A program made the position numbers and the translations under genes. A stretch of DNA of 64,000 bases, from contig DASWYC010000002.1 of assembly GCA_036405175.1 (NCBI GenBank), positions 321,700 to 385,699 on the forward strand, in the 5' to 3' direction. Of the stretch, positions 59,278 through 60,800 are shown in pieces. Source of the stretch: Minisyncoccota bacterium (lineage in GTDB: Bacteria > Patescibacteriota > Minisyncoccia > Phycocordibacterales > UBA1006). Under the pieces are notes generated by a model that saw only the letters and a list, made by a program, of their open reading frames with translations, made no database searches and was not told the DNA's origin. Position 1 is the first letter of the stretch; the number at the start of each line of letters is the position of its first letter.

Positions 59278-60800
59278 ATTTGGAAGTGATCCACGAGCAG
59301 CTTCCGCTACCCGTGCCTTGTTACGACTTATTCCCTGTTACCAAGTTCACCTTCGGCCCTGCACAAACGCAGAGACTTCGGGTGCCCCCGGCTCCCTTGA
59401 ATTGACGGGCGGTGAGTACAAGACTCGAGAACGTATTCACCGCGGCTTGCTGATCCGCGATTACTAGCGATTCCGGCTTCATGCGGGCGAGTTGCAGCCC
59501 ACAATCCGAACTGAGGATGGTTTTTAGGATTGGCTCCACATTGCTGTATTGCAGCCTGTTGTACCACCCATTGTATCACGTGTGTTGCCCAAGGTATCAA
59601 GGGACATGCTGACTTGGCGTCATCCTCTCCTTCCTCCCCCTCAGCTGAACACAAATCCTAGTAAACTAGTTTTTATGTTCATGTGAGGGGCAGTCTCGTG
59701 TGACACTTGTAACACACGATGAGGGTTGCGCTCGTTACCCGACTTAACGGAACAGCTCAAGCCACGAGCTGACGACAGCCATGCATCACCCGTATGCAAG
59801 TGTCCTTTCGGAGGGCTCTAGTTTCTTAGAGATTTCACTTACCTTTCTAACCTTGGTGAGGTGCTTCGGTTATCGACGAATTAAACCACATGATCCACCG
59901 CTTGTGCGAGTCCCCGTCTATTCCTTTGAGTTTTAGCCTTGCGGCCGTACTTCCCAGGCGGTTGATTTATCGCGTTAGCTTTGCCACTCAGAGGGTCGAT
60001 ACTCCGAATAGCTAATCAACATCGTTTAGGCCGTGGACTACTGGGGTATCTAATCCCATTCGCTACCCACGGTTTCGTGCCTCAGTGTCAGTTACGTACT
60101 AGTATATTGCCTTCGCATTCGGTGTTCCCCTTGATATCAACGGATTTCACCCCTACACCAAGAGTTCCATATACCTCTTACGCACTCAAGATATACCGTT
60201 TCAAGTGCAGTCCCCATGTTGAGCACGGGTCTTTAACACCTGACTAATATATCCACCTACGCACCCTTTACGCCCAGTAATTTCGGACAACGCTTGGGGC
60301 CTCTGTATTACCGCTCCTGCTGGCACAGAGTTAGGAGCCCCTTATTCATGAACTAATGTCAATATGCTTCTTCATTCATAAAAGAAGTTTACACGCCGAA
60401 ACGCTTCATCCTTCACGCGGTATCGCTCCGTCACGCTTTCGCGCATTGCGGAAGATTCTCGACTGCAGCCACCCGTAGGTGTATGGCCAGTGTCTCAGTG
60501 CCATTGGTGGGGGTCAGGCTCTCACCTCCCCTACGCGTCATTGCCTTGGTAAGCTTTTACCTTACCAACTAGCTGATACGAAGCAGGCCGATCCAAGAGT
60601 GGCTTGCGCCTTTACCGTTGCCGGACCATCGGTCATTAAGCCACCTTTCGGTGGGTTATTACCGTCTCTTGGGTACGTTCCTACTCATTACTACCCCGTT
60701 CGCCGCTAACACGTTTTCTAGCAAGCTAGAAAAAATGTCCGCTCGACTTGCATGCCTTATCCATACCGCCAGCGTTCGTCCTGAGCTAGGATCAAACTCT
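59278..60800 (-). rRNA. rrs: 16S ribosomal RNA (complete, about 1.52 kb, divergent)
   Basis: 5' end AGAGTTTGATCCTAGCTCAGGACGAACGCTGG (revcomp at 60769-60800); 3' end AAGTCGTAACAAGG...GGATCACTTCC (revcomp at 59281-59330); internal conserved blocks. Confidence 0.9.

Follow-up and report, generated by a model that had tools for sequence, protein, structure and literature searches.

The closest described counterparts of the system considered here are the Parcubacteria, in only 48% of which an anti-Shine-Dalgarno (anti-SD) motif is detected and for which SD helices have been inferred not to form (Tsurumaki et al. 2022, RNA 28:1041; PMC9297842). We have analysed a 64,000-nt stretch of contig DASWYC010000002.1 from a Minisyncoccota bacterium (the window), concentrating on its 16S rRNA gene and on the sequences that precede its protein-coding genes. 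The window appears to belong to the same lineage as the Parcubacteria subgroup without an anti-SD and shows the same phenomenon, in that CCUCCU is absent from the 3' end of its 16S rRNA; the shortened tip of helix 44 is also shared. The 2022 study reports the absence of the motif only, and the fates of the tail, its pairing with the trailer and the selection of starts are not described there. Compared with that subgroup the tail of the window is unusually mild, keeping GAUCA and having one changed core base. We consider it likely that the window carries the single functional, stand-alone 16S gene of a Paceibacteria/Parcubacteria-type member of the candidate phyla radiation (CPR) in which SD pairing is unused, the 16S tail has drifted under a constraint imposed by pairing with the trailer, and starts are selected through promoters whose -10 elements lie close to them.

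In SD-blind Flavobacterium the anti-SD is kept for translation of rpsU, which encodes bS21, and for maturation of the 16S rRNA, with Era, a reader of nucleotides 1530-1539, as a possible route of the latter role (PMC13000453, PMC10582724). The window resembles the Bacteroidia, represented by Flavobacterium johnsoniae, in which SDs are absent genome-wide, upstream regions are A/U-rich and 16S maturation has been implicated (PMC13000453). The Bacteroidia, however, keep a perfect CCUCC that is hidden in a pocket formed by bS21, bS18 and bS6 and is still used for rpsU, whereas here the tail sequence itself has decayed, with a core that is mutated in the window and far more so in its relatives. The lineage of the window also differs from the Bacteroidia in that bS21 and Era are reported often to be missing from it. 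Organisms with variant or absent anti-SDs, among them Blattabacterium, Carsonella, some Mycoplasma and Chryseobacterium (Lim et al. 2012; PMC6107228), are like the window in combining a variant tail with no recognisable SD and no compensating variant SD. They differ in being mostly host-restricted, with reduced genomes, and in belonging to other phyla; the CPR lay outside that survey, and no covarying tail/trailer hairpin has been described for these organisms.

Bacteria rich in leaderless mRNAs, such as the Actinobacteria and Deinococcus, have -10 elements whose last base peaks 7 nt before the ATG, often preceded by TGn; Mycobacterium tuberculosis was reportedly identified as leaderless-rich by Cortes et al. 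in 2013. These bacteria keep a canonical anti-SD and use SDs on leadered genes. The window is like them in the placement of its -10 elements, but the SD route is apparently absent altogether.

It has already been published that roughly half of the Parcubacteria have lost the anti-SD (PMC9297842), that Patescibacteria have unlinked rRNA genes (bioRxiv 10.1101/705046) and that 515F mismatches occur (PMC10943839), and the primer escape, stand-alone 16S and missing anti-SD of the window are one more example of these CPR/Parcubacteria traits. What appears to go beyond the literature that we found is the covarying tail/trailer hairpin and the start-proximal extended -10 promoters.

The 16S gene was identified by a full-length, untruncated covariance-model match (1373.6 bits against a threshold of 50, model positions 1-1533). 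It is 71.9% identical to Escherichia coli rrsH over 1478 aligned positions, and the E. coli numbering used below is taken from this alignment. The gene and the elements at its 3' end are:

59279-60807, minus strand: complete bacterial 16S rRNA gene of 1529 nt (Rfam RF00177), without a 23S or 5S gene after it
59279-59291, minus strand: 13-nt 3' tail GAUCACUUCCAAA (E. coli 1530-1542), from the cmscan alignment and E. coli numbering
59274-59285, minus strand: mini-hairpin of UUCC (1536-1539, 59285-59282), loop AAAU (59281-59278) and GGAA (59277-59274), minimum free energy (MFE) -2.8 kcal/mol

A first-pass annotation of the window had placed a complete 16S gene at 59278-60800, which is correct to within a few bases, and the strings that it quoted are all found in the RNA sense of the window. 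Relative to E. coli the gene carries G505U, G506C, C525G, C526A, C1536U, U1540A and U1541A. Helix 39 is shortened, as is the tip of helix 44. At helix 40 a 43-nt segment (59641-59683, minus strand; 16S positions ~1125-1167) replaces the 3-nt loop of the model and forms a long hairpin of its own; it lies outside the stretch covered by the independent contigs described below.

The tail, which reads GGAUCACUUCCAAA in the window, retains GAUCA, but its anti-SD core (1535-1539, 59286 to 59282) is CUUCC in place of CCUCC and UUA is replaced by AAA. Relatives for comparison were collected by scanning one genome per GTDB species for the exact 515F variant GTGCCAGCAGGAGCGGTAATAC, which gave at least 120 loci; among the matches listed, 75 relatives have a captured 16S 3' end. 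The tails of about 70 of these 75 are non-canonical, while five keep CACCUCCUU or CAUCUCCUU; these are metagenome-assembled genomes (MAGs), one from Kuenenbacteria, one from Peribacteria, two from the Parcubacteria group and one with no label finer than 'Patescibacteria'. The remaining tails, exemplified by GGAAUAAUUCAAUUUGAA, GGAUUAAUUCCAAUUGGA, GGAACAUAUCCAAUCGGA and GGAUUAACUCAAAUUGAG, are for the most part more decayed than that of the window, with cores such as AUUCA, UAUCC and ACUCA. A metagenome scan for the Paceibacteria-type helix 45 followed by GGATCACTTCC found eight further contigs, and because their 16S is only 75-78% identical to that of the window, CUUCC recurs in distant branches. 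CUUCC thus reads as a mild state in a continuum of decay, a relic that is neither a working anti-SD nor a new docking code. Several of these distant CUUCC-tail relatives (L133, L134, L135, L137, L138 and L139) carry a ~950-nt insertion in the 16S near E. coli position 1400 (for example L138 5685-6570), and in two contigs a group II intron D1-D4 model of Rfam matches within it (L138 5923-6035, L139 8005-8086).

The altered core is complementary to the beginning of the trailer, with which it forms a mini-hairpin that straddles the canonical mature 3' end of the 16S. Relatives show the same register with other arms (UUCA/UGAA, CUCA/UGAG, UUUC/GAAA, UCC/GGA), those with canonical tails have an equivalent CUCCUU/AAGGAG hairpin, and the CUUCC metagenome contigs retain GGAA after other loops (AUGU, AAGA). 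For 42 of 70 distinct tails the in-register stem reaches 4 bp or more, compared with 8.9-11.7 after shuffling (maximum 23 in 2000) and 28.6 +/- 3.1 after an exchange of trailers among lineages (maximum 40 in 2000). The base at 1539 covaries with the first base of the 3' arm, C occurring with G in 20 cases and with U in none, and A with U in 29 and with G in one (Fisher 4e-13). On a neighbour-joining (NJ) tree of the 16S the state of 1539 requires at least seven parsimony switches, and the window and L093, both UUCC/GGAA, are nested among UUCA/UGAA lineages. The existence of G.U variants, such as UUCC/GGAG, suggests that this pairing is formed at the RNA rather than the DNA level.

Cofolding of the leader and the trailer, each over 140 nt, gives the order helix 45, mini-hairpin, stable GNRA-capped hairpin and predicted leader-trailer helix. 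An RNAduplex comparison of the 330-nt leader with the trailer had produced a meaningless structure with a giant interior loop, and was superseded by the cofold. The elements flanking the mini-hairpin are:

59256-59273, minus strand: second trailer hairpin UGAAAUC-GUAA-GAUUUCA with a GNRA loop (ViennaRNA fold)
59235-59245, minus strand: trailer strand of the predicted leader-trailer helix (RNAcofold)
60811-60821, minus strand: leader strand of the predicted leader-trailer helix, immediately preceding the 5' end of the 16S (RNAcofold)

We propose that initiation in this clade would no longer use SD pairing, releasing the 16S tail to drift, and that a hairpin of 3-6 bp between helix 45 and the leader-trailer helix would be the remaining constraint on the tail bases. 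The hairpin would most likely act in the precursor, during maturation of the 3' end. It may descend from an ancestral pairing between the anti-SD and an SD-like trailer, and compensatory changes would have preserved it while the anti-SD function lapsed.

Some observations weigh against this proposal. The mini-hairpin is weak (-2.8 kcal/mol), a rival GGA/UCC pairing competes with it in the longer fold, and between ~15 and 40% of tails have no clear hairpin, depending on the criterion for stem length. Counting pairs on a covariance-model alignment shows no excess (92.3% paired against 92.1% shuffled); two of the four pairs are invariant in that count, and 26 sequences had their A-U alternative gapped by the model. 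We regard this count as uninformative because the seed had only a C-G inner pair. A MAFFT alignment of the tails was ungapped, leaving 3-nt and 4-nt loops out of register. The covariation claim is based on the register-free association test and on parsimony over a rough NJ tree, a weaker foundation than a phylogeny-aware test.

The alternative that survives best is that the mature 16S ends several bases past the E. coli end and keeps the hairpin as an extra 3'-terminal helix, so that the former anti-SD is sequestered in cis. Compensatory change has kept the pairing across the clade despite the reported lack of Era and often of bS21, the position of the hairpin upstream of both the second hairpin and the predicted leader-trailer helix makes an endonucleolytic cut beyond it geometrically possible, and CPR 16S 3' termini are often not fully annotated (PMC12641178). 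We nonetheless consider a retained helix unlikely, given that the hairpin is thermodynamically marginal and that the equivalent pairing is present in relatives with canonical tails. Many ordinary bacteria have AAGGAG-like trailer starts that are trimmed away, and for this reason a role confined to the precursor is the simpler reading. If the mature rRNA did retain the hairpin, the anti-SD would have been retired by RNA alone, where Bacteroidia conceal theirs in a protein pocket; if the hairpin is restricted to the precursor, pairing with the trailer, and not binding of mRNA, would be the deepest constraint on the tail bases.

Sequences upstream of the genes in the window give no sign that the tail is read by mRNAs. 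We used a set of 53 ORFs of at least 90 aa, defined by a longest-ORF caller, and the region from -20 to -3. GGAGG and GGAAG are each present in 0/53 ORFs, and GAAGU (1/53) and UGGAA (0/53) are at or below coding-region controls. The duplex energy of these regions with the native tail (-2.0 to -2.4 kcal/mol) matches that of shuffled sequences (-2.4 against -2.3 kcal/mol), as does their energy with a canonical tail, and the regions are depleted in G (~12%). SD 4-mers precede 10% of starts in the window against 5% after shuffling, and 14% against 10% for 322 genes of relatives with degenerate tails. In an E. coli K-12 region the same crude pipeline detects them before 49% of genes when we call the ORFs ourselves and before 59% when annotated starts are used, against 17-21% after shuffling. 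That region replaced the CPR relatives with canonical tails as a control for detecting SDs; the latter gave no signal, in a sample of only 13 genes that is too small, and both this result and the use of gene starts from a longest-ORF caller in place of a trained predictor count against our interpretation. The first-pass annotation had seen no SD upstream of dnaK, groES, groEL, rpsB, tsf, rpsA, rpoB, rpoC or secD and had taken this to fit SD-independent initiation. Pfam confirms these gene names (rpsA as an S1-domain protein), nothing SD-like is found in the 30 nt before any of these starts, and the absence of SD enrichment (10% against 49-59% in E. coli by the same method) upholds the conclusion. 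Canonical SD-like strings are very few in the window; one of them, AAGAGGUGAU, occurs at 1154-1163 (minus strand), inside the end of the frr ORF and 17-26 nt before a M50 peptidase ORF; lying beyond normal SD spacing, it is probably a chance match.

The suggestion of the first-pass annotation that CUUCC is the anti-SD core is contradicted by these data, in which GGAAG is missing and duplex energies are those of shuffled sequences, as well as by the more decayed tails of relatives and by the pairing of UUCC with GGAA in the trailer. That CUUCC is a working, re-specified anti-SD which has co-evolved with a GGAAG-type SD on mRNAs is, in our judgement, highly improbable. The tail does retain GAUCA and four of the five core bases, is conserved across samples, and recurs in eight distant metagenome contigs. 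Against these points stand the lack of any tail-complementary motif enriched 5-15 nt before starts (the GGAAG, GAAGU and UGGAA counts above), the native-tail duplex energies no better than shuffles in upstream regions with so little G, and a survey of 128 organisms with variant anti-SDs, which generally lack SDs and in none of which was a matching variant SD found (Amin et al. 2018, PMC6107228).

What might have removed the other demands on the tail is suggested by gene content. Paceibacteria mostly lack era (PMC12641178) and Parcubacteria often lack bS21 (PMC9297842), so that both known non-SD constraints on the tail would be gone, and we infer that the loss of Era and bS21 may have freed it to decay. 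Weighing against this cause, GAUCA is kept in the tail of the window and Era may still be present in the organism. In the Parcubacteria subgroup without an anti-SD, uL1 (rplA) is lost as well, and often bS21 too. Pfam finds neither an rplA nor a bS21 gene in the 64-kb window, a result that has no bearing on the remainder of the genome.

If SDs are not used, the starts themselves might be marked by promoters. TATA and TAAT words are four- to fivefold enriched just before starts in the window. We scored as -10-like any hexamer with at most one mismatch to TATAAT in which T1, A2 and T6 are fixed. In the relatives such hexamers end at -13 to -7 in 83 of 350 ATG genes, with a mode at -7 (22 genes), while the other 7-nt bins hold 8-22 hexamers; in E. 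coli the -13 to -7 bin holds 1/28. The window has them at -13 to -7 in 9 of 44 genes where ~2.8 are expected (Poisson P about 0.003). Start-proximal hexamers carry TGn in 42% of cases, compared with 7% elsewhere and 5% at random positions, and either TGn or a -35 element in 54% compared with 12% (Fisher 4e-9); seven of the nine in the window have one or the other. The housekeeping sigma-70, rpoD, is encoded in the window. One start-proximal example implies a leader of only ~3 nt:

61622-61630, minus strand: extended -10 promoter TGATATAAT, ending 10 nt before the ATG of the ORF at 61028-61612

This positional pattern, which peaks at -7 in the relatives and occupies -13 to -7 in the window with TGn well above background, is that of leaderless genes, and points to leaderless or near-leaderless mRNAs. 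Promoter-proximal genes would have (extended) -10 promoters 7-13 nt before the ATG and would produce mRNAs that are leaderless or have leaders of 0-6 nt. Operon-internal genes would instead be characterised by tight or overlapping junctions and G-poor, A/U-rich upstream sequence. For about one fifth of the genes in the window the start lies no more than 6 nt from the gene before it or overlaps that gene, and at such junctions coupling would be possible. The signal in the window counts for less than that in the relatives, being modest (nine genes) and centred near -10 rather than -7, and for this reason short leaders may outnumber true leaderless transcripts. We found no report of leaderless initiation in Paceibacteria in the literature that could be searched, where the hits were mentions in reference lists, although this is not proof that none exists.

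Extended to the whole class Paceibacteria, the proposal would be that the tail has been turned by repeated compensation from an mRNA-reading strand into an arm of a trailer hairpin once SD use and, reportedly, Era and bS21 had been lost, and that initiation is mainly leaderless or near-leaderless through extended -10 elements abutting the starts. We put this forward tentatively, as a possibility that we think is less probable than its opposite. Together the hairpin covariation and the promoter-at-start signal, across ~120 species, make it testable why an anti-SD is conserved where it is not used, and pose a second testable question, how a bacterium without any SD route initiates translation. 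The lineage is uncultured but now partly culturable. There are also consequences for annotation, in that gene callers which assume SDs, and rRNA predictors which stop at helix 45, will mishandle such genomes.

The 16S gene of the window might be a decaying, non-functional copy, with a canonical CCUCC operon elsewhere in the genome, of which our view is limited to the 64-kb window and ~18 kb of flanking contigs. This seems to us very unlikely: the match to the model is full-length and high-scoring, departures in paired regions are all compensated and the dimethyl-A loop is intact. Moreover, no 16S other than one of this architecture is found in dozens of related genomes, the complete L069 (CP174360.1) among them, and genes in the window have no SD motifs that a canonical copy could use.

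Look-up of two flanking proteins recovers the same organism from a number of Logan assemblies (runs SRR11449177-188). The tail GGATCACTTCCAAA and the trailer are identical to those of the window in the assemblies of SRR11449186, SRR11449177 and SRR11449178, whose three independent contigs reach 40 nt into the 16S 3' end and agree through helix 45, the tail and the whole trailer, so that the C-to-T change is no one-off assembly error, an explanation for it that the first-pass annotation had itself raised. Although short-read contigs break inside the 16S, ~344 nt from its 5' end and ~40 nt from its 3' end, and so leave its interior without independent confirmation, there is next to no chance that the change is an assembly or sequencing error or the gene a chimera of conserved 16S segments, given the agreement of these assemblies, a trailer partner GGAA that matches the altered tail base, and an interior with the lineage signatures of the anchored ends (Paceibacteria-type helix 45 and a compensated 530 pseudoknot).

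The placement of the organism follows from the 16S. The exact 22-mer at the 515F site is present in at least 120 GTDB species representatives, nearly all of them labelled Patescibacteria, Paceibacterota or Parcubacteria-group phyla, and the labels among the matches listed include Kaiser-, Nomura-, Adler-, Zambryski- and Wolfebacteria. The window has the Patescibacteria/Paceibacteria signature in full: GCAGGAGCGG in the 530 loop, the compensating UCC at 505-507 and the Paceibacteria-type helix 45. Best 16S identities to the window are only 81-84% among the matches listed, and the nearest sampled relatives are Nomurabacteria-like MAGs; a rough NJ tree sets it beside L117 (Nomurabacteria), L127 (Parcubacteria) and L101. 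Because the 530 signature is common to so many Patescibacteria representatives, and given the 16S identities, the organism is assigned by its sequence to the CPR/Patescibacteria and to the Paceibacteria/Parcubacteria type, with no close relative among the sampled loci. The CPR origin supposed in the first-pass annotation is thereby supported. Several Paceibacteria-type 16S contigs (L075, L084, L097, L111 and L129) come from MAGs labelled Gammaproteobacteria, Chitinophagaceae, Bacillota, Flavobacteriaceae, Methylobacter or Saccharibacteria, and many 'uncultured Candidatus Saccharibacteria' TPA records likewise carry a Paceibacteria-type 16S; these odd labels probably reflect mis-binned contigs or automatic mislabelling in public collections.

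The departures from universal primer sites lie in two structural elements:

60305-60326, minus strand: 515F primer site GUGCCAGCAGGAGCGGUAAUAC, containing GGAGCGG, with C525G at 60316 and C526A at 60315 (Rfam and E. coli alignment)
60334-60336, minus strand: 5' strand of the 530 pseudoknot (505-507), UCC in place of GGC (E. coli alignment)
59292-59315, minus strand: helix 45, a compensated lineage-specific stem CACGGGUAGC-GGAA-GCUGCUCGUG that holds the 1492R mismatch (cmscan)

In the E. coli 530 pseudoknot, positions 505-507 pair with 524-526. The window keeps all three pairs (U505-A526, C506-G525 and C507-G524) by changing GGC/GCC to UCC/GGA, and wherever a relative has the GGAGCGG variant its 5' strand reads TCC; the earlier annotation had not noticed this compensation on the other strand. 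Around the 1492R site, which reads AAGGCACGGGTAGC, the mismatch belongs to the 5' side of the helix 45 stem, whose 3' side is altered to match, and cmscan flags no non-standard pairs. The GGAA loop recognised in the first-pass annotation is present, with A1518 and A1519 unchanged. The attribution there of both primer mismatches to CPR lineages is borne out by the occurrence of the 515F 22-mer in at least 120 species and of this type of helix 45 in nearly all relatives. We read the mismatches as structurally neutral, compensated substitutions that were fixed deep in the lineage. The 515F/806R pair covers Parcubacteria poorly, with 6.3% perfect matches (PMC10943839).

Brewer et al. (bioRxiv 10.1101/705046) name the Patescibacteria as a clade whose rRNA genes are always unlinked, and the window is one more instance, without material difference, of a 16S more than 1.5 kb from any 23S. 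The first-pass annotation had judged the genes unlinked from 700 bp of downstream sequence. Rfam detects no 23S or 5S in the 59,278 nt that follow the 3' end of the 16S, a distance well above the 1500 bp between 16S and 23S above which genes count as unlinked, and none on the other side of the 16S, the position that the annotation had left in doubt, in 10.8 kb upstream on L001, an independent contig of the same organism. Nor does Rfam find a large-subunit or 5S rRNA within 4.6-6.9 kb after the 16S in 18/18 relatives, or on the four CUUCC-tail metagenome contigs that were scanned. A pattern for the sarcin-ricin loop, used as a marker of 23S, had 0 matches, and Rfam confirmed the absence on 18 + 5 loci. 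The sole other RNA gene in the 64 kb is a tRNA-Thr(UGU) at 28695-28770. In three relatives an RNase P RNA gene lies a few kb from the orphan 16S (L064 1958-2303, L055 5738-6044, L056 5548-5867), which is not the case in the window.

Upstream of the 16S are groES, groEL and a 194-aa ORF, and downstream follow a 710-nt non-coding stretch, a 201-aa ORF, mnmA, a ClpP-like gene, a SET-domain gene and secDF. The first-pass annotation had mnmA lying beyond the 16S; the gene is there (56811-57869, minus strand), but the non-coding stretch and the 201-aa ORF intervene. The remainder of the window consists of ordinary housekeeping genes, including rpoB, rpoC, rpoD, dnaK, dnaJ, grpE, rpsB, tsf and that of an S1-domain protein. 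The minor features around the 16S are:

57963-58568: 201-aa ORF with no Pfam match, between mnmA and the 16S
60978-61006, minus strand: candidate sigma-70 promoter of the 16S, TTGACT-17-CATTAT, ~170 nt upstream, from a consensus scan (9/12; weak, not above chance)

The 710-nt non-coding stretch (58569-59278) contains, directly after the 16S trailer, four consecutive near-perfect hairpins of ~23-28 bp each (58795-59061, minus strand). Their MFE is -141.4 kcal/mol (z = -16.9) in the sense of the 16S and -99.7 kcal/mol (z = -11.0) on the opposite strand, and this stronger folding of the 16S-sense strand suggests stems that are formed at the RNA level and depend on G.U pairs; a repeat search missed the array because its stems rely on such pairs. 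Just upstream lies an 11/12 match to a sigma-70 promoter (TTGACA-17-TATACT, 59093 to 59065). A permissive Rfam scan of the 710 nt found no 5S, tRNA or other bacterial RNA, only sub-threshold matches, mostly to miRNA-precursor models, which amount to generic long hairpins. No sequence homologue of the array was found in the trailers of relatives. Hyper-structured trailers are common in the clade, however, as judged from the 600 nt after the 16S in L011-L130: the best 300-nt window in 35 relatives has a median z of -6.3, with 71% below -5, a rough estimate from the minimum of four windows and 10 shuffles.

Elsewhere in the window, a 166-aa SET-domain protein (55585-56085, minus strand; PF00856, E = 1.9e-24) is encoded between the ClpP-like gene and secD, a eukaryote-type lysine methyltransferase fold in a CPR genome. 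Together with the GC content of 40% it had suggested an origin in the Dependentiae (TM6), which was rejected on the 16S signatures, which are those of Patescibacteria. Two housekeeping proteins are unusually short: EF-Ts (27926-28381, plus strand) has 151 aa and matches only the first 76 of the 204 positions of its Pfam model, and PheS (3705-4403, minus strand) has only 232 aa, comprising the core domain alone.

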